This document shows positions 1-56,929 of a stretch of DNA of 64,000 bases, in pieces. Both the position numbers and the translations under genes were made by a program. Numbering within the stretch: the stretch's first letter is position 1; every line of letters starts with the position of its first letter. The notes under the pieces are model-generated. The model saw only the letters and a list, made by a program, of their open reading frames with translations. It had not been told where the DNA came from and made no database searches. This DNA comes from Phyllobates terribilis (Eukaryota), in the NCBI RefSeq assembly GCF_046119375.1, contig NW_027362769.1, positions 292,702,001 through 292,766,000 on the forward strand, read 5' to 3'.

Positions 1-1692
1 CACAGAGTTTCTCAAAGAAGCGGTGATGTTATGTGCGACATGCTGGTGGAGCGCAGGCACACCTTTCTTTGAGAAGTAGTGCCGACTGGGCATCTGGTAC
101 TGGGGCACTGCGACGGACATAAGGTCTCGAAAATCCTCTGTGTCCACCAGGCGGAAAGGCAGCATTTCTGTAGCCAAGAGCTTGCAGATGGTGAAATTCA
201 ACCTCTTAGCTTTCTCATGGCTAGGAGGAAATGGTCTTTTACTTGTCCACATCTGAGGGACCAAGGGCTGGCTATTGTGCTTAGACGGGGTTGATAAGGG
301 TGTCCCCGGCAAACTGCCGGTCTGTGAGGAAGATGCAGGCGGACATGTTAGGTTGCCTTGATCCAAAGGTGGTGCTATCGATGTCGGACAGCGCTCAACA
401 CCAGCTGGTGTTACCACCTCCAAAGAAAATGATGACCTGCCAATCACGCTGGCTGTTGCGGGTAAAGAGGTGGCAGGTCTGCGCCCCAAAACAGGTGTGA
501 CTGCTGTCCCCCCAGTCACAGAGGATGAAGAGGCCGCGGATGCACAAGATATGGCAGACGGTGGTTGGCCCGGCCGGCTAAGCCGCATTGTAGCACACTG
601 AGCTTCCCACTGCAACTTATGCTTCATGTCCATGTGCCGGTTCATGCATGAAGTACTCAAACTATGTATTTTTTGGCCTCTACTTAGCTTTTGCTGACAA
701 ATGTTACAGATAACACGAGTTGGGTCATCTTTATCGATCTGAAAAAATGCCCAGGCTATGCAAGGCTTAGCACCCATGCGACCTGAAGAGCCACCACGAC
801 TTGTGGTGAGAGGCAGAGTTGTGTTTGAGGATGCAGTTGTTGACGTGCTTCCAGTACTACGTCTCTGTCCAGGAAGGCGCAACCTGACCTCGTTGTCACT
901 AGCATCTTCCTCCACCTCCTCTGCTGACCTCATCTCTTGGCTGACTGTGGGTTGACAGTAAGTGGGATCTCCGACCTCATCATCATCACCCTGTGTGTTA
1001 TCACACCCGTCGTCCTCAGAGCCAACCTGTTCCTGCCCTGACAAAAAACTAAAGTTGTCGCTCCAATCAGGTATTTGAATCTTATCATCGTCTTCCTCAT
1101 TGTCTCCACCAACAGGAGTTACAGTTTGGGAATGAGGGTCTACATTATGGTCAGAACCTTCTGCGTCTGGTCCTGGATCCGACTCATAAAGATTCTGGGC
1201 ATCAGTGCAGATCATTTCCTCGTCTGGATTCACAGAAGCGCTGGAGTCGACCTCTGATTCCCAGGCTATAGTATGAGTAAACAGCTCTGCAGACTCAACC
1301 ATCTGTTCTACCTCATACTCAGACGGGCAGCTGGAGATTTGGGAGCTGTGAGGAAGCAAGTGCGATTTGGGTGACACCTTTGAGGACTGGAGTATTTGTG
1401 ATGTTGAAGTTGATGTGGAGGAGAGCCCACTTAAAGGAGCACTTGATATCCGTTGAAGCACCTGCTGTTTTTGTGCCTCATCTGGAATTTGTAGCGATTG
1501 GCGTGGCCGTAAGAAAGGGATCTTATCACATTGTCCGCTAAAAGAAGTAGACATTTTAGTTTGGCTGGAAGATGGTCTTTCTTCTGCAGATGTTACTGTT
1601 GCTTTAACACCTACCCCACGGACACAAATTTTTTTCCCCTTCCCAACACGCCTATTCCCCTTTCCACCAGCAGCAGGCCTTTTTCCACTCAT
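1..1692 (-). pseudogene. hAT transposase N-terminal part (BED zinc finger to first catalytic region), disrupted
   Basis: Paralogous to the 717-aa minus-strand ORF at 16007-18160. The ORF track shows no long minus-strand ORF here, so indels have broken the frame. Start ATG at 1692 corresponds to 18323. Confidence 0.85.
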
Positions 1693-1808
1693 TTTGGTGG
1701 TTAACTAATTCACAACTCTGGAGTTGTTTGCACAAAAAAACAATGGATGGTAACCGAGCAGAGCTGCGTGGCCAAACTGTGGTATTAGGCCAAAACTATT
1801 GGCTGGGT

Positions 1809-3642
1809 TAGATGCAGAAAAAAATTATTTTGAATTTGCAACCTGATGGAGGTCAGTATAGATGGATTAATAGAACAAGACCCACACACAGCTAGAAGCC
1901 CAATATTTTTTCAGAGGTAGATGCAGGAAAAAAATATATTCAGTTTGCAACCTGATGGAGGTCAGTATAGATGGACTAATACAACAAGTCCCACACACAG
2001 CTAGAAGCCCAAATATTTTTTCAGAGGTACTGTAGATGCAGATAAAAATTAGTTTTAATTTGCAACCTGATGGAGGTCAGTATAGATGGACTAATAGAGA
2101 AAGTCCGACACACTACTAGAAGGCCAAATATTTTTTCAGAGGTAGATGCAGAAAAAAATATATTCAGTTTGCAACCTGATGGAGGTCAGTATAGATGGAC
2201 TAATAGAGAAAGTCCGACACACTACTAGAAGGCCAAATATTTTTTCAGAGCTAGATGCAGAAAAAAATTATATTCAGTTTGCAACCTGATGGAGGTCAGT
2301 ATAGATGGATTAATAGAACAAGACCCACACACAGCTAGAAGCCCAATATTTTTTCAGAGGTAGATGCAGAAAAAAATATATTCAGTTTGCAACCTGATGG
2401 AGGTCAGTATAGATGGACTAATACAACAAGTCCCACACACAGCTAGAAGCCCAATATTTTTTCAGAGGTAGATGCAGAAAAAAATATATTCAGTTTGCAA
2501 CCTGATGGAGGTCAGTATAGATGGACTAATACAACAAGTCCCACACACAGCTAGAAGCCCAAATATTTTTTCAGAGGTACTGTAGATGCAGATAAAAATT
2601 AGTTTTAATTTGCAACCTGATGGAGGTCAGTATAGATGGACTAATAGAGAAAGTCCGACACACTACTAGAAGGCCAAATATTTTTTCAGAGCTAGATGCA
2701 GAAAAAAATTATATTCAGTTTGCAACCTGATGGAGGTCAGTATAGATGGACTAATAGAGAAAGTCCGACACACTACTAGAAGGCCAAATATTTTTTCAGA
2801 GCTAGATGCAGAAAAAAATTATATTCAGTTTGCAACCTGATGGAGGTCAGTATAGATGGATTAATAGAACAAGACCCACACACAGCTAGAAGCCCAATAT
2901 TTTTTCAGTGGTAGATGCAGAAAAAAATATATTCAGTTTGCAACCTGATGGAGGTCAGTATAGATGGACTAATGCAACAAGTCCCACACACAGCTAGAAG
3001 CCCAATATTTTTTCAGAGGTAGATGCAGAAAAAAATATATTCAGTTTGCAACCTGATGGAGGTCAGTATAGATGGACTAATACAACAAGTCCCACACACA
3101 GCTAGAAGCCCAAATATTTTTTCAGAGGTACTGTAGATGCAGATAAAAATTAGTTTTAATTTGCAACCTGATGGAGGTCAGTATAGATGGACTAATAGAG
3201 AAAGTCCGACACACTACTAGAAGGCCAAATATTTTTTCAGAGCTAGATGCAGAAAAAAATTATATTCAGTTTGCAACCTGATGGAGGTCAGTATAGATGG
3301 ACTAATAGAGAAAGTCCGACACACTACTAGAAGGCCAAATATTTTTTCAGAGCTAGATGCAGAAAAAAATTATATTCAGTTTGCAACCTGATGGAGGTCA
3401 GTATAGATGGATTAATAGAACAAGACCCACACACAGCTAGAAGCCCAATATTTTTTCAGAGGTAGATGCAGAAAAAAATATATTCAGTTTGCAACCTGAT
3501 GGAGGTCAGTATAGACGGACTAATACAACAAGTCCCACACACAGGTAGAAGCCCAAATATTTTTTCAGAGGTACTGTAGATGCAGATAAAAATTAGTTTT
3601 AATTTGCAACCTGATGGAGGTCAGTATAGATGGACTAATAGA
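1809..3642. repeat. ~110-bp tandem array (about 16-17 units) in the 5' region of hAT copy A
   Basis: Unit gcaacctgatggaggtcagtatagatggactaata...tagatgcagaaaaaaatatattcagttt, counted at 109-110 bp. Confidence 0.95.
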
Positions 3643-5057
3643 ATGATGCTATGCCCAAAAGATTTTACTTCACTAGGTGCAGTAAAAAAATTGGTATTCT
3701 ATACACAGGTGGTATATCTTGCAACACAGATAGGCTACTCCACTGACTAACACACTCTGCAATAGGCCAAAAAGGATTAGCTTTGCTAGATTCAGCCAAA
3801 TGCTGTGAAAAAAACTTGCACAGCACTGGCACAGACCTGCCTGGCAAAAACTGATAGGAACTGATGTAACCTAGTCCTGAAAAGGACTCCAATTACAATT
3901 AGTCTTTACTCCCACAACCTATCTTTTTAAGAGCACAGACCTCCCTGATAAAAGTCGTAGGAAATGCTGTAACCTAGTCCTTAAAAGGACTGCAATCACA
4001 ACTATTCCCTACTCCCAAGCTATCTGTATATTTGTGCGAAAATTGGCTTGAAATTAACAAGGTATAGCGCACACAGCAACAGCGGTGCCGTCTAACACGC
4101 AGCTGCAGCAGTGAGAAAATGGTGGCGACGGGGAAAATGGCTTGGTCTTATAGGGCAAGGACATGTGACATACACTGCCAATGACACATGCCCTTGCTTG
4201 TGTGAAAAAAAGCACTTCGCTCCGTGTGTGCGCTGCTGATAGGCTGACAGATTGCACCTCCCCACTGCAAATGCGGGAAAGAGAAAAAAAAATGGAGATC
4301 TTCATTGTTCCTGCAGAGATCCATCCCCTGCCCCTCCCCCCACCCCGCTGTACACTCAAACTGCGTATTAACATTAATTTTCATCATTACTGAGAAAAAA
4401 TCCAGTTATGATTTTGGTGCACGAACAGTTATCGAACATAACCTCGAACAGCCGAATTTTTCTCAAATTGTTCGTGTTCGCCGAACGGCTCGAACACCGC
4501 CCAAAACAGCTCAAATTTGAGATTGGCGAACAGTTCGAGTAGAACAACGCTCATCTCTAGTTATTATATTAGATACAATATCCTTGTCAAGGGTATGCAA
4601 ATCCACTAGGGCCCACATTTTTGATCCCAAAATATCTTTTCACATAAATTCCCATATAGGATTATCCAGGCATCTCTGCCAAGTTAATCAACTATGACAA
4701 GAGAGCTGGGACAGTCAGCTCCTCTTAATTGCGATTTATATGACATTAATGTATCACTTCCAGTAAGAACTTAAACATGGGAGCTCAATTTAGTTTTACA
4801 AAATAAGAAAATTACGTTCTCCAATCTTATAACCAATCACTAAGACAGTAGTAGTTAATACTGAAAAGTTAATGCTATAGAATGTTTGCCGCTGTCAGCT
4901 TCATTATATTTTTAACTTTCCCTTCAGGCTATATTAGGAGGTAGATGGTAAGAGTTTGGATGTCAATGATTAAGATATTAAAGATTACAATTTGAGTTAT
5001 AAAAAAATTCTACGAAAATTTTCCAAACAAAAATTTTTGGAGGGAATTTTTGCTTAA

Positions 5058-9507: not shown

Positions 9508-10530
9508 TTAATATACTATTAAGTCTTGTTAGTATACAATGGTGTGAAAAAGTGTTTGCCCCCTTCCTGATTTCTTACTCTTTTGCATATTTGTCACACT
9601 TAAATGTTTCAGATCACAAAACAAATTTAAATATTAGACAAAGACAACACAAGTAAACACAAAACACAGTTTTTAAATGAAGGTCTTTATTATTAAGGGA
9701 AAAAGAAATCCAAACCTGCAGGGCACTGAGTGAAAAATTGATTGTCCCCTAAACGTAATAACTGGTTGGGCCACCCATAGCAGCAACAACTGCAATCAAG
9801 CATTTGCAACAACTGGCAATGAGTCTTACAACGCTCTGGAGGAATTTTGGCCCACTTACCTTTGCAAAATTGCTGTAATTCAGCCACATTGGAGGGTTTA
9901 TGAGCATAACAATCTTTTTTAAGGTCATGTCACAGCATCTCAATTGGATTAAGGTCAGGACTTTAACTAGGCAGCTCCAAAGTCTTAATTTTGTTTTTCT
10001 TAAGCCATTCAGAGGTGGACTTGCTGGTAGTGTTGAGCCACCCCCGTAGTGTTCGAGTTCGGTTCGGTTCGTCGAACACCCGTGTGTTCGCCAAACTGTT
10101 CGTCGAACTGTTCGTTGAACACCTTCGAACACCGTTAAAACCAATGGCAGGCAAACAAAAACAAGAAACACATAGAAAACACCTTCAAAGGTGTCCAAAA
10201 GCTGACAAACTGCTCAGAAGACACAACTAACACATGGAAAAGTGACAAGTACATATAGTCATGCGAAAAGAAAAGAGGTGGAGGAGTAAAAGGAGGGGGA
10301 GACACAGATATAGGCATGTCATGCCCTTCTAAAATCCAAAAAGTGAGAAGCCGACACGTTCAGTCCGCTCCTGCCCGTGCCACCTCCGTGTCGCCGGGTT
10401 TGTGCCAGAGCCGCGGTGAACCCTGACGGCCAGCCCCCCTCTCCCAATACTGGTGCCTGTCCGCTGGTGGGTCGAGCGAGCCCCCCTGTGGTGGAGGCAG
10501 CTCTAAGCTTTTTAATTTAAATTGTCTCTC

Positions 10531-10795
10531 TAATTTGAATGAATACACTTTAAATCCATTTACAAGGATCTATTGGAGGGCAAGTCTCATGCCAGCAGCC
10601 GCGTAATTCCAGCTCCAATAGCGTCCACTAAAGCTGCTGCAGTTAAAAAGCTTTTATAAGGATCGATCTCGGCTGTCCACCGCAAGGCATCCTACTGCCA
10701 GTCCCAGCCCCTATGCCTTGGGGTGCCTCCTGATGCTCTTCACTGAGTATCCCGTGGTCCCGAAGCATTTCCTTTGAAAAAATTAAGTGTCCAAA
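10531..10795 (+). rRNA. 18S rRNA pseudogene fragment (~265 bp, degenerate)
   Basis: Contains ttggagggcaagtct..gccagcagccgcg-taattccagctccaatagcgt..aaag.tgctgcagttaaaaagc, matching the universal 18S block, followed by gtcccagcccct...gatgctctt.actgagt.tccc..cccgaagc.ttt.ctttgaaaaaatta of the V4 region. Many substitutions, so not a functional gene. Recognised from memory of 18S sequence, not by alignment. Confidence 0.9.
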
Positions 10796-11066
10796 CTACA
10801 GGTGGTGTAGCTTACTTAACAGCCGGGATAATCCACTGACTAGCAGACACTGCTACTAGGCACAAAGTATTTCCTGGGCTAGATGCAGTTAAAAATTTGT
10901 AATTAGATATTCTCGTTGGATGCTGAGAAAGCATTCCATAGAGTCTCCTGGCACGCCATATATGATTCTCTTAAAAATCTTGAGGTAGGGGTCTAGGGGA
11001 CCCTTTTATAGCCAAAATCACGGCCCTGTATCACAATACGTCACCTAGGCTGAAGATAAATGGAAC

Positions 11067-12270
11067 TGTAGCACCCTGAGGGCTCGGTTGCTACAGAGGT
11101 ATTGCACCTCACCCAGAGGTGTGATATCTCACTCTCAGGTAAGGATGGAGTGTGGATCAGGACCCGACACCTGCATGCATTACAACACATTGCCGTGGGG
11201 CAGGGCGACCAATATGCCTCTGAGATGGGCACGACAGTCCCTGTCCCTGGCTGGAGTTGGGGGAGGGAACACTGAGGAAGGGGAACCCTGTAGTGCAGGA
11301 GCAGGGAGGAAGCAGTTCCTGGGTGCATTGAGAAGGGAGTATAAAAGGTGGGCACCATCTTAGTTCAGTGCAGAGAAGTCTGAGCAGAAGTGGCAGGGAG
11401 CAGGGGCTCTGCATGAGCTCTGCTCCGGAGGCGGGCCTAGTAACAGAGGCCTAGGCCTGGAAGAGGGAGAAGGAAGGAAGAGGAGCGGAGAAGGCTCCAG
11501 GAACGAGGAATGAAGGGATCCCAGGGGTGCGGACGGGCGAGTCGCCACCACACGCCCGAATCCACCTGCGTGGAGGGGTCAGGCCAAAGGGGGAGACCGG
11601 TCCCCGAAACTAGTGGAGGCAGGAAACGACCCTCAGCTAGAAACCGGAGGCTGTGACATTTTATGTGGCGCAGCCCCTCGCTACACCCGCTAGGAAGGCA
11701 CCACATAGGGTCAGGGAAACTGGCGCCAAGTTTACCAAGAGGAGGCCCGAGGCAGCCGGACAGAAGGGTTGGTAAGAAAGGCCAGACAAAGGACACACAA
11801 AGGGGGTCCTGTGAAGCGCTCCAAAGTTATCTGGGAGTTGTCTGAGCCCCTCACCTGGTGAGCACAGTACGACGTGGGCAGCCGTTACCTGCAGACGTGG
11901 TCTGGATAATAAGAACTGTGAGAAAAGGCCCTGGACTGCATCACTGACTCCGTGTCGTTACTGCTGCTGCCCTGCACCATCACCCCCATCCTCCGCATAC
12001 ACTGCCCTGAGGCTATACTCCTCCCGTGGGGAGTTATACAATGCTCTGCTGCACCCACAACACCAGCCTCAGCGGTCTGCCCTGCAGCGGCGGTTCACTC
12101 TGACCGCAATCCACGGGTGGCGTAGTCGGACATTTAAACATCATAACCACAAAAATAGTTCCGCCACTGGTTTGACCACCCTGAGCCACGGAACCGGGTC
12201 GCCGCCACGAAGACTACAACCACCAGCATCCACCAAAAAGGGTCCGGCTCCGGGTGTCCCAAGGCCCAGG
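11067..12270 (+). mobile_element. Probable LTR fragment, truncated
   Basis: Starts TGTAGC, has a TATAAAA at about 11340, and tggcgtagtcgg (12118-12129) is complementary to the tRNA-Ser 3' end. No LTR terminus or TSD found; it fuses abruptly to L1 sequence. Confidence 0.5.
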
Positions 12271-12731
12271 GGGTGGATCAGAACATTTTCATCACCTTTC
12301 ACAATCACCAATGGGACAAGGCAGGGATGTCCTCTGTCCCCTCTCTTATACATCCTAGTGACGGAGCACCTGCTCTCATCAATTCGCCATAACCCCAATA
12401 TTAGGTGGATTGAGGTGGGAGGCACCGAGTACAAGTGCTCTCTATTTGCTGATGATGTCCTAGTATATATCACTCAATCACATATATCCATCCCTGCTGT
12501 TATGGCTGAAATAGATCACTTTGTTACATGGTCAAATTTTAAAATCAATGCAGCGAAGTCTGAGGCCCTCGATGTCTCCCTCCCCAAATCCATATAGGAT
12601 TCCATCCAGTCCAACTTTCCCTTTGCCTGGCCCTCACAGGGTATCAAATACTTAGGAATTCCTATTCACAGAGACCTCTCCCATCTATGTTATCTTAATT
12701 TTGAGCCCTTTATTGAACAACTCCATACAGA
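12271..12731 (+). pseudogene. LINE-1 ORF2 reverse transcriptase fragment
   Basis: Translation includes NGTRQGCPLSPLL and CSLFADD, and after a stop continues with IKYLG, all typical of L1 RT. Both ends are abrupt and there is no poly(A). Confidence 0.9.
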
Positions 12732-12802
12732 CCACGGTTGGCAAGTTAGAACTGTAAGATTCACTACGTGAACCACTGGTGTTTTGTGGAAAAGCACATG
12801 TA

Positions 12803-14130
12803 CACTGTGTTCCAAATTATTATGCAAAAAGTGTTTAGGAGTGATAAGGGAAGAATTTGTTTGTTTGTCAGTTAAACTCATTGATGGTGATGTGTGTCAG
12901 GGCTCTTTATTTCACTGTAAGCAATTGCAGACACCTGTGCTAGATAGTTTGGCTGGTGTGTCCAATGAAAGGCAAGACTACTTAAGAAGGCTGTCTCACA
13001 TTATTAAGCAGCCTACATTTTCTGCCAAAATGGGAAAGAAAAAGGATGTGTCGGCTGCTGAGAAGCAACAAATTGTGGAGTGTTTAGGTCAATGCATGAC
13101 TACAATCAACATTGTGCGATGAACAGGATAAAGTGTCTTGGCAATCAAGAAGTATGTAGCTGATTCACAGTACACACGTGTGCCTGCTGATAAGGGCAAA
13201 TTGAGGACTCTTTCCTACAGGCAATTACGTCAGGTTAAAAGAGCAGCGGCAAAAAAGCCTTGTCATAGCAGCAGACAAGTTTTTGAAGCTGCTGGTGCCT
13301 CCAACGTCCCCCGAACAACAAGATGCAGGGTCCTTCAGAGGTTTGCAGCTGTGCATACGCCATCCTGTCGACCTCCTCTATCCACTTCACACAAGCAGAA
13401 ACGGCTCCAGTGGGCCAAACATTACATGAAGACTGATTTCAAAACTGTTTTGTTCACGGATGAGTGCCGTGCAGCGCTCGATGGTCCAGATGGATGGAGT
13501 GGAGGATGGCTGGTTGATGGACACCCCGCGCAAACACGGCTACAGCGCCAACAAGGAGGAGGTGGAGTAATGTTTTGGGCTGGAATCATGGGGAGAGAGA
13601 TTGTCGGCCCCTTTATGATCCCTGAAGGCGCTAAAGATGAACTCCATAATGTATGTGGATTTTCTCAAACAGCACTTCCTGCCATGGTTCAAGAAGAAGA
13701 ACCGTGTATTTCAGCAAGATCATTTTTTTGCATGATAATGCACCATCTCATGCTGCACATAAAACATCTGCATCTCTGGCTGATATGGGCATAAAATGGG
13801 ACAAACTTATGGTGTGACCCCCATGCTCCCCTGACCTCTACCCCATTCAGAACCTCTGGAGCATCATCAAAAGGAGTGTCTATGATGGCGGGAGGCAGTT
13901 CACATCTAAGCAACAGCTCTGGGAGGGTATTCTGTCCTCATGCAAAACAATTGAAGCAGAAACCATCCAAAACCTGACAAATTCAATGGACGAGAGAGTT
14001 CAGAAGCTCCTTTCGAACAAGGGGTCCTATGTGAAAATGTAACATCACCTAGAATAAAGTTTTGAGTTGAAAACTGTTTGATCTCAGTTTCTAATAACCT
14101 GCTAATGCTTATAATTTCAAAAATGACCAT
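12803..14130 (+). mobile_element. Tc1-related TRT-type (DD37E) transposon, decayed, right TIR missing
   Basis: Left TIR cactgtgttccaaattattatgcaaa follows TA at 12801-02. Transposase pieces MGKKKDVS (13030), VLFTDECR..LDGPDGW, then HDNAPSH...SPDLYPIQNLW. I count 37 residues between the second D and the E position (mutated to Q). Right boundary approximate. Confidence 0.85.
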
Positions 14131-14295
14131 TTTTTTGGTCTTTATTAAAATGAAAAGGTTGATTGAAAAGTTTGGGGGATCTAAGAGTGTGGCAACCCAG
14201 TAGTCATGATTACTTCGAATTCTGACAATATGAGGGTCATGTTGCAGGTAGTGCAGCAAGAAGGCACTTATGTGTCTTGCGCATCTCGGAGCCCC

Positions 14296-14575
14296 AAAAT
14301 TATTTTCCGGGCTAGATGCAGCTAAAAATTATTATTTATTTTAAATCTGGTGGAGCTTACTATAGATGGCCTAATAGGATCAGTGCTGCACACTGCTACA
14401 AAGCCCAAGTTATTTTCCAGTTAAGATACAGATAAACATGATTAGTAATTTTAAATCTGGTGGAGCTTATTATAGATGGACTAATAGAATCAGTGCTGCA
14501 CACTGCTACAAAGCCCAAAATATTTTCCAGCCAAGATACAGATAAACATGATTAGTAATTTGAAAGCTTAAAACG
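14296..14575. repeat. About 2.5 diverged copies of the 110-bp hAT array monomer
   Basis: ttaaatctggtggagctta at 14341 and 14451 (110 apart); shares tatagatggactaatag and tagatgcag with the 18440-21035 array. Confidence 0.8.
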
Positions 14576-14609
14576 GTTGGTAGGGTCATTTTAACCAATC
14601 ATCAAGCTT

Positions 14610-17600
14610 TTACTCTCCCCAGGATGACACAGGGGTAGAAAAGTCGTTTCGGATCCATGATTTGTTCATCTTTATGAACGTGAGTCTGTCTACATTATCA
14701 GTGGAGAGCCGCGTGCGCTTATCTGTCAGCACACCACCAGCAGCGCTGAACACACGTTCAGACACACGTTCAGACAGAACGCTGGCTGCGGGGCATGACA
14801 AGATCTCCAAGGCGTAAGTGGCTAGCTCCGGCCATTTATCCAGATTGGAAGCCCAAAAAGAGCAAGGGTCCAGTGACACAGTCATGGCTTCAATGTTTAA
14901 TTGGAGATACTCCTGTACCATCGTCTCTAGGCGTTGACTATGTGTCAGACTTCTTGTCTCCTGTGGCCTTGCAAAGGATGGGCTAAAAAAGTGGTGAAAT
15001 GATTCCGCAAAATTGATGTTACCAGCAGATACTGTGGTTCTGTTACAGTTTGAGTGCTGAACACTTGACGGTCCCACGGTTGGCAAGTTGGAACTGTGAG
15101 ATTCACTACGTGCACCACTGGTGTTTTGTGGAAAAGCACATGTAAGATTCTGCAACAGTCTGCTGATACTCCTGCATGCGTGCATCCCTTTCTATGGCAG
15201 GAATAATTTCTGCAAATTTACTTTTGTACCGGAGATCTAACAGTGTGGCAATCCAGTAGTCAGGATTATTTCTAATTCTCACAATTCGAGGGTCATGTTG
15301 CAGGTAGTGCAGCAAGAAGGCACTCATGTGTGTTGCGCATCCAGGAGCACCAAGTCCCTGTTGTGTTGGTGGCGAGGTAACAATCATGATTCCTTCCTCT
15401 GTCCTCTCCCTCCAACCTCGCACAACAGAAATGTGATCAAGGTCTCCCTCATCTGATGAGTCTTCCATCAGTTCGTCCTCCACTTCTTCCTGGGCTCCTG
15501 CACCTTCGTCACTAGTTTGTTTGGCTGCTATCATGCGCCCTGGTAAAACCATCTCCCCCACCCTCACATGCCTGCCGCCTTGGTGCTGCCAACCGTCTGG
15601 ACCTTGCAGATGTTAGCCCTTCCGCATACAACTCCTCCTCCTCTACTTCCTCCACCTCCTCTTGTGCCACCACCTGATTCCGAATTCTGTTTAACATGTG
15701 CTCCAGAATGTAAATCACCGGAATAGTCATGCTGATAATGGCATCGTCAGCACTAAACATCTTCCTCGCCATTTCAAAACTGTGCAGAAGGGTGCATAGG
15801 TCCCTGATCTGAGACCACTCCTCCAGCGTGATTTGCCCCACCTCTGGATCTCGTTGGCCCAGGCTATACGTCAGAACGTATTGCACCAGGACTTGTCGGT
15901 GCTGCCACAGTCGCTGCAACATGTGCAGAGTTGAATTCCACCGGGTAGGCACATCGCATTTTAGCCGGTGAAGTGGCAGGCCCAACGACTTCTGTAGAGA
16001 TGTAAGTCACTGAGCTGCGGGATGCGAACGGCGGAAGTGAGCACACAGCGACCGTGCCCTCTGCAGAAGGCCATCTAGTCTGGGATAGTGGGCTAAAAAT
16101 TGCTGGACAACCAGGTTCAACACGTGAGCCATACAAGGCACGTGTGTGACATTGCCCCGGGGAAGGGCCGCACCCAGGTTTGCAGCATTGTCGCACACGG
16201 CCTTCCCTGGTTTCAGGTCCAGTGGAGACAACCATTCATGAAATTGGTTCTCCAGAGCTGACCACAACTCCTCAGCTGTGTGACTCACATTTCCCAGACA
16301 TTTCAAAGTTAAAACCGCCTGATGACGTTGAGCCCTACTGCCAGCATAGTAAGGAGGTGTGCAGGATCCCTTCTGCGCAGTTAGAAAGCTTGTGGCATGA
16401 CCAGACAGGCTTTGGGTGCAGGTGGAAGACCGAGAGGAGGTTGAGGAGGCTGAAGCAGTGGAGGAACTTTGACATAAAGAGGATTGACGCACAACTCGTG
16501 GGGACGGCAAGACTTGGACAGCAGCCCCTTGTCCTGCTGTCACCATAGTTACCCAGTGCCCAGTCAGCGACATGTAATGCCCCTGTCCATGCCTACTCGT
16601 CCAAGTGTCTGTGGTGAAATGCACCCTGTCACACACAGAGTTTCTCAAAGAAGCGGTGATGTTGTGTGCGAGATGCTGGTGGAGCGCAGGCACACCTTTC
16701 TTTGAGAAGTAGTGCCGACTGGGCATCTGGTACTGGGGCACTGCGACGGACATAAGGTCTCGAAAATCCTCTGTGTCCACCAGGCGGAAAGGCAGCATTT
16801 CTGTAGCCAAGAGCTTGCAGATGGTGAAATTCAACCTCTTAGCTTTCTCATGGCTAGGAGGAAATGGTCCTTTACTTGTCCACATCTGAGGGACCGAGGG
16901 CTGGCTATTGTGCTTAGACGCGGTTGATAAGGGTGTCCCCGGCAAACTGCCGGTCTGTGAGGAAGATGCAGGCGGACATGTTAGGTTGCCTTGATCCAAA
17001 GGTGGTGCTATCGATGTCGGACAGCGCTCAACACCAGCTGGTGTTACCACCTCCAAAGAAAATGATGACCTGCCAATCACGCTGGCTGTTGCGGGTAAAG
17101 AGGTGGCAGGTCTGCGCCCCAAAACAGGTGTGACTGCTGTCCCCCCAGTCACAGAGGATGAAGAGGCCGCGGATGCACAAGATATGGCAGACGGTGGTTG
17201 GCCCGGTCGGCTAGGCCGCATTGTAGCACACTGAGCTTCCCACTGCAACTTATGCTTCATGTCCATGTGCCGGTTCATGCATGAAGTACTCAAACTATGA
17301 ATTTTTTGGCCTCTACTTAGCTTTTGCTGACAAATGTTACAGATAACACGAGTTGGGTCATTTTTATCGATCTGAAAAAATGCCCAGCCTATGCAAGGCT
17401 TAGCACCCATGCGACCTGAAGAGCCACCACGACTTGTGGTGAGAGGCAGAGTTGTGTTTGAGGATGCAGTTGTTGACGTGCTTCCAGTACTACGTCTCTG
17501 TCCAGGAAGGCGCAACCTGACCTCGTCGTCACTAGTATCTTCCTCCACCTCCTCTGCTGACCTCATCTCTTGGCTGACTGTGGGTTGACAGTAAGTGGGA

Positions 17601-18323
17601 TCTCCAACCTCATCATCATCACTCTGTGCGTTATCACACCCGTCGTCCTCAGAGCCAACCTGTTCCTGCCCTGACAAAAAAACTAAAGTTGTCGCTCCAA
17701 TCAGGTATTTGAGTCTCATCATCATCTTCCTCATTTTCTCCACCAACAGGAGGTACAGTTTGGGAACGACATTATGGTCAGAACCTTCTGCGTCTGGTCC
17801 TGGATAAGACTCATAAAGATTCTGGCCATCAGTGCAGATCATTTCCTCGTCTGGATTCACAGAAGCGCTGGAGTCGACCTCTGTTTCCCAGGCTATAGTA
17901 TGAGTAAACAGCTCTGCAGATTCAAACATCTGTTCTACCTCATACTCAGATGGGCAGCTGGAGATTTGGGAGCTGTGAGGAAGCAAGTGCGATTGGGGTG
18001 ACACCTTTGAGGACTGGAGTATTTGTGATGTTGAAGTTGATGTGGAGGAGAGCCCACTTAAAGGAGCACTTGATATCCTTTGAAGCACCTGCTGTTTTTG
18101 TGCCTTATCTATCTGGAATTTGTAGCGATTGGCGTGGCCGTAAGAAAGGGATCTTATCACATTGTCCGCTAAAAGAAGTAAACATTTTAGTTTGGCTGGA
18201 AGATGGTCTTTCTTCTGCAGATGTTACTGTTGCTTTAACACCTACCCCACGGACACAACCTTTTTTCCCCTTCCCAACACGCCTATTCCCCTTTCCACCA
18301 GCAGCAGGACTTTTTCCACTCAT
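14610..18323 (-). pseudogene. hAT (Ac/ZBED-like) transposase, frameshifted
   Basis: ORF pieces 18105-18323, 16007-18160, 15512-15985, 15106-15567 and 14610-15185. They contain a BED finger (WAFF..CNICQQ..MNRHMDMKH), FTTDTWTS, CDNAAN, PCMAHVLNL, DVPTRWNST and the C-terminal dimerisation motif SCPAASVLSERVFS..KRTRLS. Confidence 0.95.
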
Positions 18324-18439
18324 TTTGGTGGTTAACTAATTCACAACTCTGGAGTTTTTTGCACAAAAAAACAATGGATGGAAACCGAGCAGAGCTGAGT
18401 GGCCAAACTGTGGTATTAGGCCAAAACTATTGGCTGGGT

Positions 18440-21035
18440 TAGATGCAGAAAATGATTATATTCAGTTTGCAACCTGATGGAGGTCAGTATAGATGGACTA
18501 ATAGAACAAGTCCTACACACAGCTAGAAGCCCAAATATTTTTTCAGAAGTAGATGCAGGAAAAAAATATATTCAGTTTGCAACCTGATGGAGGTCAGTAT
18601 AGATGGACTAATAGAGAAAGTCCCACACACTGCTAGAAGGCCAAATATTTTTTCAGAGCTAGATGCAGACAAAAAATTATTTTGAATTTGCAACCTGATG
18701 GAGGTCAGTATAGATGGACTAATAGAGAAAGTCCCACACACTGCTAGAAGGCCAAATATTTTTTCAGAGCTAGATGCAGAAAAAAATTATATTCAGTTTG
18801 CAACCTGATGGAGGTCAGTATAGATGGACTAATAGAACAAGTCCCACACACAGCTAGAAGCCCAAATATTTTTTCAGAGGTAGATGCAGATAAAAAATAT
18901 TTTTAATTTGCAACCTGATGGAGGTCAGTATAGATGGACTAATAGAAAAAGTCCCACACACTGCTAGAAGGCCAAATATTTTTTCAGAGCTAGATGCAGA
19001 AAAAAATTATATTCAGTTTGCAACCTGATGGAGGTCAGTATAGATGGACTAATAGAACAAGTCCTACACACAGCTAGAAGGCCAAATATTTTTTCAGAGG
19101 TAGATGCAGATAAAAATTATTTTTAATTTGCAGCCTGATGGAGGTCAGTATAGATGGACTAATAGAGAAAGTCCCACACACTGCTAGAAGGCCAAATATT
19201 TTTTCAGAGCTAGATGCAGACAAAAAATTATTTTTAATTTGCAACCTGATAGAGGTCAGTATAGATGGACTAATAGAGAAAGTCCCACACACTGCTAGAA
19301 GGCCAAATATTTTTTCAGAGCTAGATGCAGATAAAAATTATTTTTAATTTGCAACCTGATGGAGGTCAGTATAGATGGACTAATAGAGAAAGTCCCACAC
19401 ACTGCAAGAAGGCCACATATTTTTTCAGAGCTAGATGCAGAAAAAAATTATATTCAGTTTGCAACCTGTTGGAGGTCAGTATAGATGGACTAATAGAACA
19501 AGTCCCACACACAGCTAGAAGCCCAAATATTTTTTCAGAGGTAGATGCAGAAAAAAATTATATTCAGTTTGCAACCTGATGGAGGTCTGTATAGATGGAT
19601 TAATAGAACAAGTCCCACACACAGCTAGAAGCCCAAATATTTTTTCAGAGCTAGATGCAGAAAAAAATTATATTCAGTTTGCAACCTGATGGAGGTCTGT
19701 ATAGATGGATTAATAGAACAAGTCCCACACACAGCTAGAAGCACAATATTTTTTCAGAGGTAGATGCAGAAAAAAAATATATTCAGTTTGCAACCTGATG
19801 AAGGTCAGTATAGATGGACTAATAGAACAAGTCCCACACACTGCTAGAAGCCCAAATATTTTTTCAGAGCTAGATGCAGATATAAATTATTTTTAATGTG
19901 CAACCTGATGGAGGTCAGTATAGATGGACTAATAGAGAAAGTCCCACACACTGCTAGAAGGCCAAATATTTTTTCAGAGCTAGATGCAGAAAAAAATTAT
20001 ATTCAGTTTGCAACCTGATGGAGGTCAGTATAGATGGACTAATAGAACAAGTCCCACACACAGCTAGAAGCCCAAATATTTTTTCAGAGGTAGATGCAGA
20101 AAAAAATTATATTCAGTTTGCAACCTGATGGAGGTCTGTATAGATGGATTAATAGAACAAGTCCCACACACAGCTACAAGCCCAATATTTTTTCAGAGGT
20201 AGATGCACAAAAAAAATATATTCAGTTTGCAACCTGATGGAGGTCAGTATAGATGGACTAATAGAGAAAGTCCCACACACTGCTAGAAGGCCAAATATTT
20301 TTTCAGAGCTAGATGCAGATATAAATTATTTTTAATTTGCAACCTGATGGAGGTCAGTATAGATGGACCAATAGAGAAAGTCCCACACACTGCTAGAAGG
20401 CCAAATATTTTTTCAGAGCTAGATGGAGATAAAAATTATTTTTAATTTGCAACCTGATGGAGGTCAGTATAGATGGACTAATAGAGAAAGTCCCACACAC
20501 TGCTAGAAGGCCAAATATTTTTTCAGAGCTAGATGCAGAAAAAAATTATATTCAGTTTGCAACCTGATGGAGGTCAGTATAGATGGACTAATAGAACAAG
20601 TCCCACACACAGCTAGAAGCCCAAATATTTTTTCAAAGATAGATGCAGATAAAAATTATTTTTAATTTGCAACCTGATGGAGGTCAGTATAGATGGACTA
20701 ATAGAGAAAGTCCCACACACTGCTAGAAGGCCAAACATTTTTTCAGAGCTAGATGCAGACAAAAAATTATTTTGAATTTGCAGCGTGATGGAGGTCAGTA
20801 TAGATGGACTAATAGAACAAGTCCCACACACTGCTAGAAGGCCAAATATATTTTCAGAGCTAGATGCAGAAAAAAATTATATTCAGTTTGCAACCTGATG
20901 GAGGTCAGTATAGATGGACTAATAGAACAAGTCCCACACACTGCTAGAAGCCCAAATATTTTTTCAGAGCTAGATGCAGAAAAAAATTATATTCAATTTG
21001 CAACCTGATGGAGGTCAGTATAGATGGACTAATAG
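18440..21035. repeat. ~110-bp tandem array (about 23-24 units) in the 5' region of hAT copy B
   Basis: Same monomer as 1809-3642 but a longer array with a different variant order. Confidence 0.95.
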
Positions 21036-22589
21036 ATTGATGCTATGCCCAAAAGATTTTACTTCACTAGGTGCAGTAAAAAAATTGGTATTCTATACAC
21101 AGGTGGTATATCTTGCAACACAGATAGGCTACTCCACTGACTAACACACTCTGCAATAGGCCAAAAAGGATTAGCTTTGCTAGATTCAGCCAAATGCTGT
21201 GAAAAAAAACTTGCACAGCACTCTCACAGACCTGCCTGGCAAAAACTGATAGGAACTGATGTAACCTAGTCCTGAAAAGGACTGCAATTACAATTAGTCT
21301 TTACTCCCACAATCTATCTATTTAAGAGCACAGACCTGCCTGATAAAAGTCGTAGCAAATGCTGTAACCTAGTCCTTAAAAGGACTGCAATCACAACTAT
21401 TCCCTACTCCCAAGCTATCTGTAGATTTGTGCGAAAATTGGCTTGAAATTAACAAGGTATAGCGCACACAGCAACAGCGGTGCCGTCTAACACGCAGCTG
21501 CAGCAGTGAGAAAATGGTGGCGACGGGGAAAATGGCTTGGTCTTATAGGGCAAGGACATGTGACATACACTGCCAATGACACATGCCCTTGCTTGTGTGA
21601 AAAAAACCACTTCGCTCCGTGTGTGCGCTGCTGATAGGCTGACAGATTGCACCTCCCCACTGTAAATGCAGGAAAGAGAAAAAAAAATGGAGATCTTCAT
21701 TATTCCTGCAGAGATCCATCCCTTGCCCCTCCCCCCACTCCGCTGTACACTCAAACTGCGTATTAACATTAATTTTCATCATTACTGAGAAAAAATCCAT
21801 TTATGATTTTGGTGCACGAACAGTTATCGAACATAACCTCGAACAGCCGAATTTTTCTCAAATCGTTCGTGTTCGCCGAACGGCTCGAACACCGCCCTAA
21901 ACAGCTCGAATTTGAGATTGGCGAACAGTTCGAGTCGAACAACGCTCATCTCTACTTGCTGGTGTGTTTTGGATCATTGTCCTGCTGCATAACCCATGCA
22001 AAAGAATAAGAAATCAGTAAGGTTGCAACCACTTTTTCACACCACCATATGTCTTTTTAACCTTGGGGTGTATACTGGATTCAAAAGATTCGCACAATAG
22101 CTAAATTAAACATTTTATTATTTATTTATGTACTCAACTTTTAAAAAAGACAAATACATCATTTGTCAAAATAATTTCCCCACTGTTCAACATACATTTT
22201 CCATCTGTCAACATGGAATCAAAAAACGTTTTAGACTGTACCACAAATGCACCACTGTTTTCATCTCTTCAAGAAATTTGAATCTTTATCTTTGTTCTTT
22301 GCCACATAATCCACTGTCACTCATTTATCCAACAAAATCCTTTCACGCTCAATGTTGTCATAAATCGTGGGTGGGTGTCTGTCTCTTTCTTCATGAATGA
22401 AACTTGTGCAAACTACCTTGAACTTCTTCGCTATAAATCACTTTCGTCATACTGTACACAAAGTCTACGATAAATATTGGCACCTGACACACCCTCAGAC
22501 CACAAAAAAATTAATCACTGCACATTACCCATCTTTCGTGCAAATTACTTTTCGGGCAGCCTTTGTTTCCGCAGTCACAAATGAACTGA

Positions 22590-24573: not shown

Positions 24574-24995
24574 TGTTAGAACCTTGCTGTTAGGTTTTTT
24601 TTCCTTTGCTGGTCACATGACCTTGTTGGCCTATTTAATCCTGCTCCGCCCTTCTGGCTTTGCTGGACTTCATTGTATATCTACTTTCTAGCTAGCCTGT
24701 GCTCTGTATCTATCTCTGTTAGTTTGCTTGGTCTACGGACCTCTATGTTCTATCTATTTTGTTTGTTCGTCTGTCTGCTACTATTTCTGTTAGGAGGTGT
24801 CCCATATTCCTTCCAGTCCTTAGTACTTGTAGGGATTCCCTTCCCTCATCTATAGGTCTTCGTACAGACTAGATTAGGACTTTAGCAGGTCTGATCGCAG
24901 GATCAGGTTCCCTGTTACATCGTAGGGATTCAGCTGAGTCCTATAGTAGGGACAGATCTCCTCTCTTTCCTTAGCTTTGGTAGCAGAACATAACA
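24574..24995 (+). repeat. Gypsy-1 5' LTR
   Basis: tgttagaacc...cataaca. By eye it differs from the 3' LTR at one position (24594 G versus T). Confidence 0.97.
24632..24670 (+). promoter_or_regulatory. Putative LTR promoter: TATA-like box and predicted transcript 5' end
   Basis: TATTTAA at 24632. gctggactt begins 30 nt later (24662) and is complementary to the PBS position at 24998-25006. Confidence 0.65.
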
Positions 24996-25072
24996 GTAAG
25001 TCCAGCCTGCAAATTCTCTAAGGAAAGATTTTTTTTTGTTCCATCAAACACCTGCAGGGACTCTCTCTGGAA

Positions 25073-28000
25073 GTGGCCGAGCTCCGTCAGCACGTGAGTA
25101 ACTGTCCTGGAGCATATTTCTTGGAGCCTAAGGTATGTTTGCCGGATTTATTTTTTGGTGAACATCGAGAATTTTTTTCATTTAAAAATGCTTGCTTATT
25201 GTATTTTCGTTTGAGACCCAAGTCCTCTGGGGATGAATCCCAGCGCGTAGGGTTCATAATGTCACTTTTGCGCAAAGAGCCTCAGGAGTGGGCCTTTTCT
25301 TTGCAACCTAGTGATACATGCTTCAGATCAGTGGATAGTTTTTTTTCTGCTTTAGGACTATTATATGATGATCCTGACCGTGTGGCATCAGCTGAGACTG
25401 AGTTGAGACGTTTAAAGCAAGGATCGGGTAATGTGGAAAAATATTGTACTCATTTTCGTCGTTGGTCCACTCAAACAGGGTGGAACGATTCTGCTCTGAA
25501 AAGTCTATTTCTTGCTGGGCTCAGTGAAAGGGTTAAAGACCTGCTAATTGCTTATCCTACACCTGAGGATTTGCAACAGGCTATGCAATTAGCTATACGG
25601 GTGGATAGAAGACTGCGTGCTAGGGTTAATGAGAGCAAATCCTCTGCTATGTCAGTTTCTGGTTATGATAATGTGTGTACTAACAGTGGTGAACCGATGG
25701 AGATTGGATCGGTGGCACCTCGCTCTCAAGAAAAAGACCGTCGTTTTTCGGAAGGCTTGTGTTTCTATTGCGGAAAATCTGGTCATTTGATTAAAGGCTG
25801 TGAGCTTCGTATGAAGAAAGAAAAAAAAATGGTCAGTCACGCCCGTATTGCCTGTTTAAATTCCAAGGGTATATTTTTAGCTGCTTCCACGATTGCTCAG
25901 GAAAAATTAATGGAATTTCGGGTGTTTGTTGATTGCGGGTCTACACTAAATGTAATTGATGGGGGATTCGTGGAAAAACTCAATTTAAAACCTGAACCTT
26001 TATCATCCCCCATTGCTGTGGTTTCTGTGGATGGCTCCCCTTTGAAGAATATTACTCTCAAGGTCAGTGAATTTCCTCTCACTATTAATGGTGTTCACCA
26101 TGAGAAATTGGATTTGGTAGTGTTGAATAACTTGCCTTCTCCAGTAATATTGGGTTTGCCCTGGTTAAAATTTCACAATCCTGTACTGGATTGGTCTACC
26201 AGTGAAATTAAATCCTGGAGCCATAAATGTTATGACAAGTGTTGTAACGGGCGTATTGCAGCTTTGGATAGGGGAGAATTGCCTGTTCCTATTCAGGATT
26301 TTTGGAGAGTTTTTTCTGAGAAAGAATCGCAGGTTTTGCCTCCCCATAGAGACTATGATTGTTCTATTGAATTTGTCCCTGGAGCGACTCTTCCTAAAAG
26401 TCGTTTATTTAACCTTACTATTCCTGAGAGGAAGGCTTTGGAGGAATACATACAGACAAGTTTGGCCGCCGGTCACATTAGGCCCTCTAAGTCTCCTGTG
26501 GCGGTTGGATTTTTTTTTGTAAAAAAAAAGGACGGCGGTTTACGTCCTTGTCTAGATTTTCGTGAGATTAACAAAATTACGGTACGCAATCCTTACCCAC
26601 TGCCATTGATTCCTGATCTGTTTAACCAGTTATTGGGGGCCAAGTGGTTCTCTAAAATTGACCTTAAGGGGGCATACAATCTGTTGCGCATGAAGGAGGG
26701 TGATGAATGGAAGACTGCTTTTAACACTCCTGTGGGTCATTTTGAGAATCTGGTTATGCCTTTTGGTCTTACTAATGCTCCTGCATTTTTTCAGAATCTG
26801 ATTAATGACATCCTTAGACCTTTGATCGGTAAAAATGTGGTTGTGTATTTGGATGACATTTTGATTTATTCGCCAGATCTGGAGTCTCATTGGCGGAGCG
26901 TGCGTGAGGTATTACAGTTATTAATGGACAATTCGCTTTTTGCTAAGCTGGAGAAATGTGAGTTCGCTGTACAGAGAATTATTTTTTTGGGCTACATTAT
27001 CTCCAGCAAAGGTTTTGAGATGGATCCGGTTAAGGTTCAGGCTGTGCAGGAATGGCCTAGGCCTATTGGTTTGAAATCGATACAGAGGTTTTTGGGTTTC
27101 GCCAATTACTATAGAAAATTCATAAAAAATTTTTCTAGTATTGTCAAACCTCTGACTGATCTCACCAGGAAAGGTGCTGATGCGGTTCAGTGGTCTTCTG
27201 AGGCCATTGAAGCTTTTGTGTATCTCAAGGAGAGGTTCACCTCTGCTCCCATCCTTATGCAGCCTGATGTTACTAGGCCGTTTTTGGTTGAGGTTGATGC
27301 TTCCTCTGTGGGGGTTGGCGCAGTATTGTCTCAGGATAACGGGGATGGATTACATCCCTGTGCCTTTTTTTCAAAAAATTTTTCGGAGACTGAATTGAAT
27401 TACGATGTTGGTAATCGGGAATTATTGGCTATTAAACTCGCATTTGAACACTGGCGCCACTTCTTGGAAGGTGCGGAATTTCCCGTTCAGGTTCTTACGG
27501 ATCATAAAAATCTGATATATCTTGATGCTGCCAAGCGCCTGAATGCCCGTCAGGCTAGGTGGGCACTGTTTTTCTCGCGGTTTAATTTCTCCGTTACTTA
27601 CATCCCTGGTACTAAGAATGTTAAGGCGGATGCCTTGTCTCGCAGTTTTTCTCCCATAGTCGGTGCTGAGAAAGAGGAAAACATTTTACAAGAAGGTGTT
27701 GTGATAGCTGCTTTAGACTCCGTTTTGGAAGATGAGATTCTTAAAGCTCAGGAGAATGCCCCATCTAACACTCCTCATGGGAGGTTGTTTGTGCCTGGGA
27801 CCTTTAGGAGAGATTTGTTTGTTGAGTGTCACGAATCTCGGTTGGCAGGTCATCCCGGAATCTCTGAGACCAAGAGACTGGTGGGTCGCAGTTTTTGGTG
27901 GCCTGGATGGCAGAAGGAAGTCATTAAGTGGGTGCGCCAATGTACTATATGTGCTAGATCTAAGTCCTCACATACTCCTGCTGCGGGGTTGCTTTGTCCT

Positions 28001-29194
28001 TTGGAGGTCCCCAGTGCTCCTTGGACACATTTGGCTATGGACTTTATAACTGACCTTCCCCCCTCTGAGGGTTTTACTGTCATCTGGGTGGTCGTGGACC
28101 GTTTTAGCAAGATGTGTCACTTGGTTCCCTTCGTCAAACTGCCCTGCGCTAAAACTCTCGCTAAGACCTTTGTCAAAGAAATTGTCAGACTTCATGGCGT
28201 TCCTACTGACATTGTTTCTGATAGGGGTCCTCAGTTCGTGGCTCGTTTTTGGCGTGCCTTTTGTGACAGGTTGGGAATTCATTTGTCATTTTCGTCCGGA
28301 TATCATCCTGAATCTAATGGCCAGACAGAAAGGAAAAACCAGGATGTTGAGCAGTTCTTGCGTTGTTTTGTGGCAGACAATCAAGAGGGGTGGTCTGAGT
28401 TTCTGCCACTTGCCGAATTTGCTCTGAACAATCATACATCTTCTTCTGCTGGTTGTTCACCTTTTTTTTGTTGTTCTGGGAGACATACGTCGTTTGGGTC
28501 GTTCTCCAAGTTGGGATCTGCCATGCCTGAGGAGGAGAATTTTTCCGGTGATTTGGAAAGAGTTTGGACGGATGTGCGTGGTAATCTTCAGGAGGCCAAC
28601 AGAAAATCTAAAGACTACTTTGATAGGAAACGACAGGAGGTTTTGTTCGCTGTTGGTGACATGGTTTGGTTGTCCTCTAGGAATCTGCGGTTGAGGATTC
28701 CTTCTAAGAAATTGGGTCCCAAGTTTGTGGGGCCCTTTAAGGTGCTTCAGGTTGTCAACCAATCTGCTGTTAGGCTGGAGGTTCCTACCTCCTGGAGAAT
28801 TAATCCGGTCTTTCATGTCTCTCTGTTAAAAAAAGCTGTTGTGTCGGATGGTGACGCCTCTGCCTCTGTTCCTCCGGTGGTGGAGGACGGGGAATATGAA
28901 ATTTCTCGCATCCTTGACTCTAGACGGTATAGAGGTAGTTTGCAGTATCTTGTGGCCTGGAAAGGTTTCGGACCCGAGGATAACTCTTGGGTGAGGTCAG
29001 ATGATGTTTCCGCGTCCAGACTTATCAGAGCGTTTCACAGGAGATTTCCTGATAAGCCTGGTCCTAGGGGAGGTACTGTTAGAACCTTGCTGTTAGTTTT
29101 TTTTTCCTTTGCTGGTCACATGACCTTGTTGGCCTATTTAATCCTGCTCCGCCCTTCTGGCTTTGCTGGACTTCATTGTATATCTACTTTCTAG
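25073..29194 (+). CDS. Gag-Pol polyprotein (gag, CCHC knuckle, protease, RT, RNase H, integrase, chromodomain), 1373 aa
   Basis: Uninterrupted ORF with CFYCGKSGHLIKGC, VDCGS, YLDDILI, EVDASSVG..TDHKNL, HESRLAGH..CTIC, MDFIT/SDRGPQF/GQTERKN, GPKFVGPF and YEISRILDSR..YLVAWKGFGPEDNSW. It starts at GTG; the first ATG is at 25259. Confidence 0.95.
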   Translation: MAELRQHVSNCPGAYFLEPKVCLPDLFFGEHREFFSFKNACLLYFRLRPKSSGDESQRVGFIMSLLRKEPQEWAFSLQPSDTCFRSVDSFFSALGLLYDDPDRVASAETELRRLKQGSGNVEKYCTHFRRWSTQTGWNDSALKSLFLAGLSERVKDLLIAYPTPEDLQQAMQLAIRVDRRLRARVNESKSSAMSVSGYDNVCTNSGEPMEIGSVAPRSQEKDRRFSEGLCFYCGKSGHLIKGCELRMKKEKKMVSHARIACLNSKGIFLAASTIAQEKLMEFRVFVDCGSTLNVIDGGFVEKLNLKPEPLSSPIAVVSVDGSPLKNITLKVSEFPLTINGVHHEKLDLVVLNNLPSPVILGLPWLKFHNPVLDWSTSEIKSWSHKCYDKCCNGRIAALDRGELPVPIQDFWRVFSEKESQVLPPHRDYDCSIEFVPGATLPKSRLFNLTIPERKALEEYIQTSLAAGHIRPSKSPVAVGFFFVKKKDGGLRPCLDFREINKITVRNPYPLPLIPDLFNQLLGAKWFSKIDLKGAYNLLRMKEGDEWKTAFNTPVGHFENLVMPFGLTNAPAFFQNLINDILRPLIGKNVVVYLDDILIYSPDLESHWRSVREVLQLLMDNSLFAKLEKCEFAVQRIIFLGYIISSKGFEMDPVKVQAVQEWPRPIGLKSIQRFLGFANYYRKFIKNFSSIVKPLTDLTRKGADAVQWSSEAIEAFVYLKERFTSAPILMQPDVTRPFLVEVDASSVGVGAVLSQDNGDGLHPCAFFSKNFSETELNYDVGNRELLAIKLAFEHWRHFLEGAEFPVQVLTDHKNLIYLDAAKRLNARQARWALFFSRFNFSVTYIPGTKNVKADALSRSFSPIVGAEKEENILQEGVVIAALDSVLEDEILKAQENAPSNTPHGRLFVPGTFRRDLFVECHESRLAGHPGISETKRLVGRSFWWPGWQKEVIKWVRQCTICARSKSSHTPAAGLLCPLEVPSAPWTHLAMDFITDLPPSEGFTVIWVVVDRFSKMCHLVPFVKLPCAKTLAKTFVKEIVRLHGVPTDIVSDRGPQFVARFWRAFCDRLGIHLSFSSGYHPESNGQTERKNQDVEQFLRCFVADNQEGWSEFLPLAEFALNNHTSSSAGCSPFFCCSGRHTSFGSFSKLGSAMPEEENFSGDLERVWTDVRGNLQEANRKSKDYFDRKRQEVLFAVGDMVWLSSRNLRLRIPSKKLGPKFVGPFKVLQVVNQSAVRLEVPTSWRINPVFHVSLLKKAVVSDGDASASVPPVVEDGEYEISRILDSRRYRGSLQYLVAWKGFGPEDNSWVRSDDVSASRLIRAFHRRFPDKPGPRGGTVRTLLLVFFSFAGHMTLLAYLILLRPSGFAGLHCISTF

Positions 29195-55800: not shown

Positions 55801-55899
55801 CAGAGTACACGATGTTGTTGTTTTTAGTGTGCTGCATTGATCTTGCCAAATTGCAGTCTGTAATATGGCTTGTGCACCTGCTCTTGCTGCGACTGCAGG

Positions 55900-56905: not shown

Positions 56906-56929
56906 GGGGGAAAAAAAAGATTGAGTCCG

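Follow-up and report, generated by a model that had tools for sequence, protein, structure and literature searches.

Large hAT transposons that move themselves while loaded with the debris of other transposable elements (TEs) have been described before. As far as the parts of the published account drawn on here go, hobo_AC of the lizard Anolis carolinensis is an autonomous hAT of 9-15 kb with an 8-bp target site duplication (TSD), an 11-bp terminal inverted repeat (TIR) and about 1% divergence; it is swollen by TE fragments and occurs as recombining lineages of differing structure, with 290 copies of which 25 are full (PMC3014272). Animal Pack-TIRs are, in the sections of Tan et al. (2021, PMC8277862) used here, mostly hAT or Tc1/mariner elements, short and mostly single-copy, with four multicopy cases; Pack-hAT-N8_XT is an example with three transpositions. 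Gap filling or template switching is proposed for their origin, and their definition asks for a unique, TE-free donor that is at least 90% identical. Plant Pack-TYPE elements, including Pack-hAT, are presented in the consulted portion of Gisby and Catoni (10.1101/2021.06.18.448592) as non-autonomous carriers of coding-gene pieces gained stepwise. Here we compare with these systems a hAT of the frog Phyllobates terribilis, located in a stretch of 64,000 nucleotides of contig NW_027362769.1 (positions 292,702,001 to 292,766,000 of the forward strand), which we call the window and in which all coordinates are given.

The hAT occupies 10028-21954 (about 12 kb) and is flanked on both sides by the 8-bp TSD CTTGCTGG. 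Its host site is a Tc1-type element, the inverted ends of which lie at 9540-9588 and 21996-22044. The TIRs are short (11 bp) and agree at 9 of 11 positions, so that both marks of the hAT superfamily, an 8-bp TSD and short TIRs, are present, the former in the window and in five of nine long loci. An initial annotation had described one TSD-bounded hAT holding a mosaic of 18S ribosomal DNA (rDNA), long terminal repeat (LTR), L1 reverse transcriptase (RT), hAT/TRT and satellite pieces, and such an element is indeed present (Table 1), the mosaic lying between the 3' TIR and the transposase stop codon. Its extent was drawn too wide (10028..14600), however: the foreign load covers 10344-14565 (4.2 kb), and the first 316 bp of the hAT are its own subterminal DNA. 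Likewise all members named in that annotation are there, but their true order includes L1-LTR-L1, and an rDNA spacer and a single satellite monomer had been overlooked. No piece stems from a host coding gene; all pieces of the load map to rDNA or mobile elements. We estimate at about 0.75 the probability that this load was built over at least five steps, with two ordinary nested insertions (LTR and TRT) and the others likely repair events, and was moved as a single 12-kb unit of a young transposase-encoding hAT.

Evidence for mobility comes from other copies. The interval 10028-11100 (1,073 bp) matches 39 other loci at 99% among the best 40 of 4,397 candidates in this 10.6-Gb genome, and 28 of the 29 loci fetched are colinear with the window to about 12600, the edge of the fetched DNA. 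Among nine loci for which 16 kb was fetched, five show both ends, and each of these has an 8-bp TSD of its own (four exact, one at 7/8). Thus the same mosaic stands at unlinked loci with different TSDs, the outcome that was to show mobilised cargo, and the proposal that the hAT moves its cargo is borne out. Exact 3' ends (first 22 nt) number 82,584, exact spacer/18S joints 49,769 and exact left L1/LTR joints 40,642, against 0 for each reversed-pattern control; with respect to sequence decay these counts are floors, and they may include uncollapsed haplotypes. A positional sample consisted of the first 60 of the 82,584 ends, all within the first 14 Mb of one contig and chosen by a 3'-end pattern that selects against subfamily B, the TIR of which differs. 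All ten junctions are found at 32 of these 60 ends (one via a nested copy counted twice; two share a flank), six lack only or chiefly the LTR, six are partial and 16 show no junctions. The mosaic is family-wide and is mobilised as part of a single 12-kb unit.

The 16 junction-free ends belong to two other groups. Twelve derive from a non-coding family of 5.3-6 kb with the same hAT ends and an interior of inverted and tandem repeats (L053, L058, L068, L097, L099, L101, L102, L105, L107, L108, L114, L119). The other four (L051, L091, L116, L124) represent a rearranged subfamily, in which the TIR and rDNA spacer are joined to a reversed transposase with a 1.1-kb insert. A second copy of the hAT family starts just upstream of the window and occupies 1-4560 (L032); it carries the mosaic, with the part corresponding to 11974-12798 absent.

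The family is young and encodes a transposase, and it is likely self-powered. In the LTR-bearing subfamily, A1, the majority frame is 1233 amino acids (aa) long at a mean distance of 0.64% (31 copies), and eight of the 31 copies have a near-full frame (at least 1226 aa open). The LTR-less subfamily, A0, has a mean distance of 1.58% and none of its five copies is open. One open copy carries the BED finger PF02892 and the C-terminal dimerisation domain PF05699; in its match to Hermes (E 8e-19) the second D, the CxxH and the E line up, and the first D falls beyond the displayed alignment. RNA runs of other organisms contain only free TRT or distant L1 pieces and are uninformative on host expression.

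Table 1. Features of the hAT and its load in the window (ORF, open reading frame).
Feature	Position	Strand	Basis or remark
TSD, left copy (CTTGCTGG)	10020..10027	.	sequence, 8 bp
3' TIR (11 bp) and native subterminal region	10028..10343	-	common to subfamilies A, B, C, D
rDNA spacer, 574-410 nt upstream of 18S	10342..10508	+	137/168 to own rDNA unit (L132)
Spacer/18S junction, short locally templated duplication	10509..10525	+	donor nt skipped: 965
18S rDNA fragment, about nt 557-841 of 18S	10526..10797	+	Rfam RF01960
Single monomer of the hAT's own 110-bp satellite, older type	10798..10909	.	older subfamilies: 4-12 monomers here, behind 18S
L1 ORF2 (RT) fragment, left part	10907..11066	+	continuous with right part in LTR-less copies
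Complete solo LTR, TG..CA	11067..12280	+	4-bp TSD GAAC at 11063-11066 and 12281-12284
L1 RT fragment, right part	12281..12732	+	PF00078; 145 bp longer in subfamily B3
71-bp copy of hAT ORF (15074-15144)	12732..12802	-	69/71 to B ORF, 66/71 to A ORF
TRT-type Tc1 element at TA, left TIR present	12803..14162	+	PF01498; right end gone
12-nt templated insert repeating adjacent downstream flank	14163..14174	+	11/12 match
123-bp copy of hAT ORF (15231-15353)	14175..14297	-	sequence match
About 2.5-3 satellite monomers (110 bp)	14290..14565	.	from 5' array of ancestral copy
hAT transposase ORF, broken in window copy	14610..18323	-	stop codon 14610-14612
5' array, 110-bp monomers	18440..21036	.	sequence repeat
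5' subterminal region and 5' TIR	21037..21954	-	sequence
TSD, right copy	21955..21962	.	8 bp; sequence

The rDNA pieces are 82-85% identical to the genome's own rDNA in subfamily A and 84-90% in B; for the 18S piece (RF01960, E 1.8e-15) this amounts to 240 of 281 positions in the window. The spacer piece, likely 5' external transcribed spacer, is a remnant in the window of a 393-nt piece in subfamily B, with a deletion of about 810 bp from B to A, at a 2-nt overlap. The TRT piece is 93-96% identical to free copies, which are common (3,684 TIR ends with other flanks) and about 1,570 bp long when full-length; about 210 bp including the right TIR have been lost. Its catalytic spacing D-37 is seen, and the final residue is not E in two decayed copies read; the published TRT is, in the passages available, a DD37E Tc1 element of 1,563 bp with a TA target. 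A match to the small nucleolar RNA sR7 (E 0.09, below the cut-off) is a chance hit. The same satellite monomer is found on either side of the ORF.

Sister subfamilies carry different mosaics (rDNA only; with L1 added; with ORF-TRT added; with the LTR added), which was the other pattern to look for. Subfamily B (20 loci fetched) holds 18S, a longer spacer and an RT piece, and is without L1, LTR and TRT; the RT piece is presumably DIRS-like, a label taken from its motifs and a weak PF00078 match (E 0.019; three frames scanned). In B3 (three loci) the DIRS-like piece is gone (seen in two), the L1 piece is the longer one, and 16-bp direct repeats enclose three monomers with 91% similarity to those of the element's own 5' array. 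A0 has an ORF-TRT-ORF block in place of about 2.2 kb of B3, and A1 equals A0 plus the LTR. A transposase tree of 31 copies over 1.7 kb places A1 inside A0, makes B3 their sister and leaves B outermost, and its tips become shorter stepwise. The order of the tree is the same as the structural order of the subfamilies.

In the proposed series, an ancestor would first have gained, beside its 3' satellite array, two parts of a single rDNA unit together with the DIRS-like RT piece, as in B. A partial internal duplication would have come second, accompanied by loss of the DIRS-like piece and of some spacer sequence, and third the addition of a 760-bp L1 fragment and three monomers from the element's own 5' array (B3). 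Fourth, about 2.2 kb would have been swapped for a block from a TRT-disrupted hAT ORF (A0). Landing of the LTR in L1 (A1) would be the last addition, followed by a burst. Its position away from the ORF and the ends is likely what has let the load persist; there is no indication that it is functional.

Rearranged copies are of several kinds. Some join the 3' array to the 5' array with the ORF lost and others show partial tandem duplication (L178, L180; L072, L073, L083, L084), which suggests recombination between the two arrays. Deletions between the 71-bp or 123-bp ORF copies of the cargo and the real ORF strip the transposase of its C-terminus (C1, L035-L036; C2, L047). LTR-like elements are repeatedly found at the L1/ORF junction at window position 12732 (L138, L142, L144, L146-L153); many near-identical cases are on unplaced contigs, perhaps through segmental amplification.

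As to how the pieces were gained, the two largest, LTR (1.2 kb) and TRT (1.36 kb), make up about 60% of the load and arrived via ordinary transposition. Insertion of the LTR is shown by its TG..CA ends, by GAAC on both sides, by the single GAAC at the empty site of LTR-less copies and by free relatives that end at identical termini, two of which are flanked by 4-bp TSDs; the terminal dinucleotides, the short TSD and the empty site expected of a solo LTR are all present. TRT is, by its sequence context, inserted at TA into hAT ORF sequence, either in place or in a donor copy. The absence of terminus and TSD reported earlier for the L1 and LTR pieces does not hold for the LTR; the L1 piece is internal on both sides. 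Nor does the remark that ordinary nested insertion does not produce such pieces stand for the LTR, and the L1 piece can be read as a truncated insertion plus a deletion.

For some pieces the junctions make repair-linked capture likely. The two rDNA pieces come from one unit and are 965 nt apart in the donor. Their joint in B holds a 15-nt insert in which 10 nt repeat the flank exactly (11 of 20,000 shuffles), and at the TRT/ORF joint a 12-nt insert repeats the flank at 11 of 12 positions (4 of 20,000 shuffles); further joints have overlaps of 2-4 nt. The advised inspection for microhomology was therefore positive, with templated duplications at two joints that suggest end joining or template switching. 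Templated insertions are described, in the part of the source used, as a hallmark of polymerase theta (PMC7454005), by analogy with which we infer a role for this enzyme at the junctions of the load. In the open-licence papers searched, nothing relevant was found on templated insertion or filler DNA at transposon excision. Capture in trans is likely for the rDNA and the satellite monomers and possible for L1 and the ORF block. The idea that this hAT captures DNA during repair is thereby likely for the rDNA and monomers, by end joining or template switching, and does not apply to the LTR.

The strongest competing explanation would have every piece arrive by ordinary insertion (retrocopied pre-rRNA, L1, DIRS, nested hAT, TRT and LTR), trimmed afterwards by deletions, with no capture in trans. 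LTR and TRT were genuinely inserted, copies still acquire new insertions and deletions, the 5' junction of L1 is as expected of a truncated insertion, and deletions between the 71-bp and 123-bp repeats are observed. Nonetheless we regard it as unlikely. Satellite monomers are immobile, but three of them, now flanked by 16-bp repeats, originated as copies of the 5' array; the spacer, 18S, DIRS-like and ORF pieces are internal on both sides, with no ends, tails or TSDs in the copies read; and many deletions would have to become fixed within about 3% divergence.

A number of observations nevertheless weigh against stepwise gain by repair. The L1 piece is equally well explained by a 5'-truncated insertion and one deletion, and a search for its free donor gave 31 exclusion-pattern matches, of which the 20 read all proved to be copies of this family that had later gained or lost sequence by insertion or deletion; such a donor was also absent from the 1.1 Mb of DNA that was fetched. 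Since plain deletions can likewise leave microhomology and templated inserts, these do not prove capture in trans, and both junctions tested by shuffling were picked after inspection. A nested copy could have left the ORF-TRT block behind, as copies of the family are commonly nested in one another. The transposase tree covers 1.7 kb and has few nodes with support above 0.95, and the majority frames of A1 and B differ by 19 silent and 30 replacement codons, a sign of weak selection on the transposase. Finally, a cargo-free ancestor was not among the loci read, though no search was aimed at one.

Far less probable is a single capture event, in which one donor locus supplied the entire mosaic as a ready-made block of old, nested debris. 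This has been proposed for hobo_AC in the portion of PMC3014272 consulted, and the ORF-TRT block may itself be one such capture. For the load as a whole it is refuted by subfamilies with rDNA only, then L1, ORF-TRT and LTR; moreover, the similarity of TRT to its free copies (93-96%) and the closeness of the ORF pieces to the family itself show that these were young when taken. That the mosaic is unique to the locus or an assembly error is already refuted by tens of thousands of exact junctions, differing TSDs and contigs of independent runs, which cross most junctions (record 1 of run X13, for example, covers 10800-12801).

With stepwise gain as the preferred reading, the comparison with the known systems is as follows. 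The frog hAT resembles hobo_AC, as characterised in the sections cited above, in being a large autonomous hAT with the same TSD and TIR lengths, low divergence, TE debris and structurally different lineages. It differs in having more than 40,000 copies (over 100 times as many), rDNA cargo, steps that can be ordered and two true nested insertions, which those sections of the lizard paper judged unlikely for hobo_AC. Like a Pack-TIR it holds non-self DNA between TIRs that is re-transposed with new TSDs; unlike one, in the terms given in the available text of Tan et al., it keeps its transposase and its donors are repeats rather than unique sequences, and their screen would exclude such a repeat-derived load. 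Captured fragments gained stepwise in a TIR element are shared with plant Pack-TYPE elements as outlined in the source above, whereas its open transposase frames and its lack of host coding-gene pieces set it apart. From Hermes and Ac-type transposases, with which it shares the BED finger, the dimerisation domain and an aligned catalytic region, the protein differs in its length (1233 aa) and long low-complexity inserts, and the element in the internal satellite arrays that flank its ORF. The initial annotation had seen here a candidate for a poorly described system. With the autonomous 9-15 kb hobo_AC and its captured TE debris in print, this is not so: the frog element is a hAT of hobo_AC habit that works like a Pack-TIR yet falls outside those definitions, known in kind and extreme in scale. 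No published case of rDNA cargo in an amphibian hAT was found in the open-licence literature.

An older family in the window, hAT-3 (54606-58773), had been said to show a similar pattern. This holds in part: it has a composite 3' end, and at least 30 other loci share this end at 84-89% over nearly its full length. The window further contains a young chromodomain LTR retrotransposon (24574-29376); its frame is open for 1390 aa, and its two LTRs show no difference in the 300 nt that were compared. The A1 mosaic is also present in runs labelled as three other organisms (among X9-X13 and X15). TRT occurs free at about 96% in RNA run X15, which fits the horizontal transfer of TRT reported in the consulted part of PMC5630946.

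The carried 18S piece has itself become a target. At one site in it, at about window position 10607, a non-LTR retrotransposon that we take to belong to the Tx1-like clade is inserted in 5 of 80 sampled loci (L123:661-8576, L074, L083, L096, L070, L166-L189 and L217-L227 are loci with such insertions). The element has endonuclease, RT and ZCCHC3-type ORF1 domains. Exact Tx1-like/18S 3' junctions number 272, and in all 24 that were read the 18S ends at the cargo's 18S end. Several distinct types of 3' untranslated region occur among the insertions, and these point to independent events. With a pattern that excludes the cargo's 18S variant, 2 of 11 matches lie in 18S copies of 1.4-1.5 kb; as the element is thus also found in long 18S copies, it is probably the 18S sequence as such that is targeted. 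Tx1L of Xenopus, a Tx1-type non-LTR element, inserts at a fixed site within a DNA transposon, Tx1D. The frog element differs in that its target is captured 18S and in that it is also present in long 18S copies. A published 18S-specific Tx1 was not found in the open-licence literature. We infer that most Tx1-like copies now reside in these 18S decoys, a proportion to be read with the possible under-assembly of the true rDNA arrays in mind.

These observations have consequences for the genome as a whole. Taking 40,642 junctions at about 4.2 kb each, roughly 170 Mb or 1.6% of the assembly would be passenger L1, LTR, TRT and rDNA sequence (an estimate). Repeat landscapes would misread the spread of these passengers as recent bursts of L1, LTR and TRT families, and rDNA counts would be inflated; an 18S search gave 79,151 rough candidates. 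The surviving intermediates form an unusually complete natural record of how a TIR element gains cargo. Tentatively, and with the odds slightly against it, one may picture a hAT with a repair-prone 3' region that repeatedly captures DNA in trans, and whose roughly 50,000 dispersed 18S decoys are now the main home of an 18S-specific Tx1-like element, so that one element would be building the niche of another. In any case the decoys permit a test of how a site-specific retrotransposon responds to the multiplication of its target.

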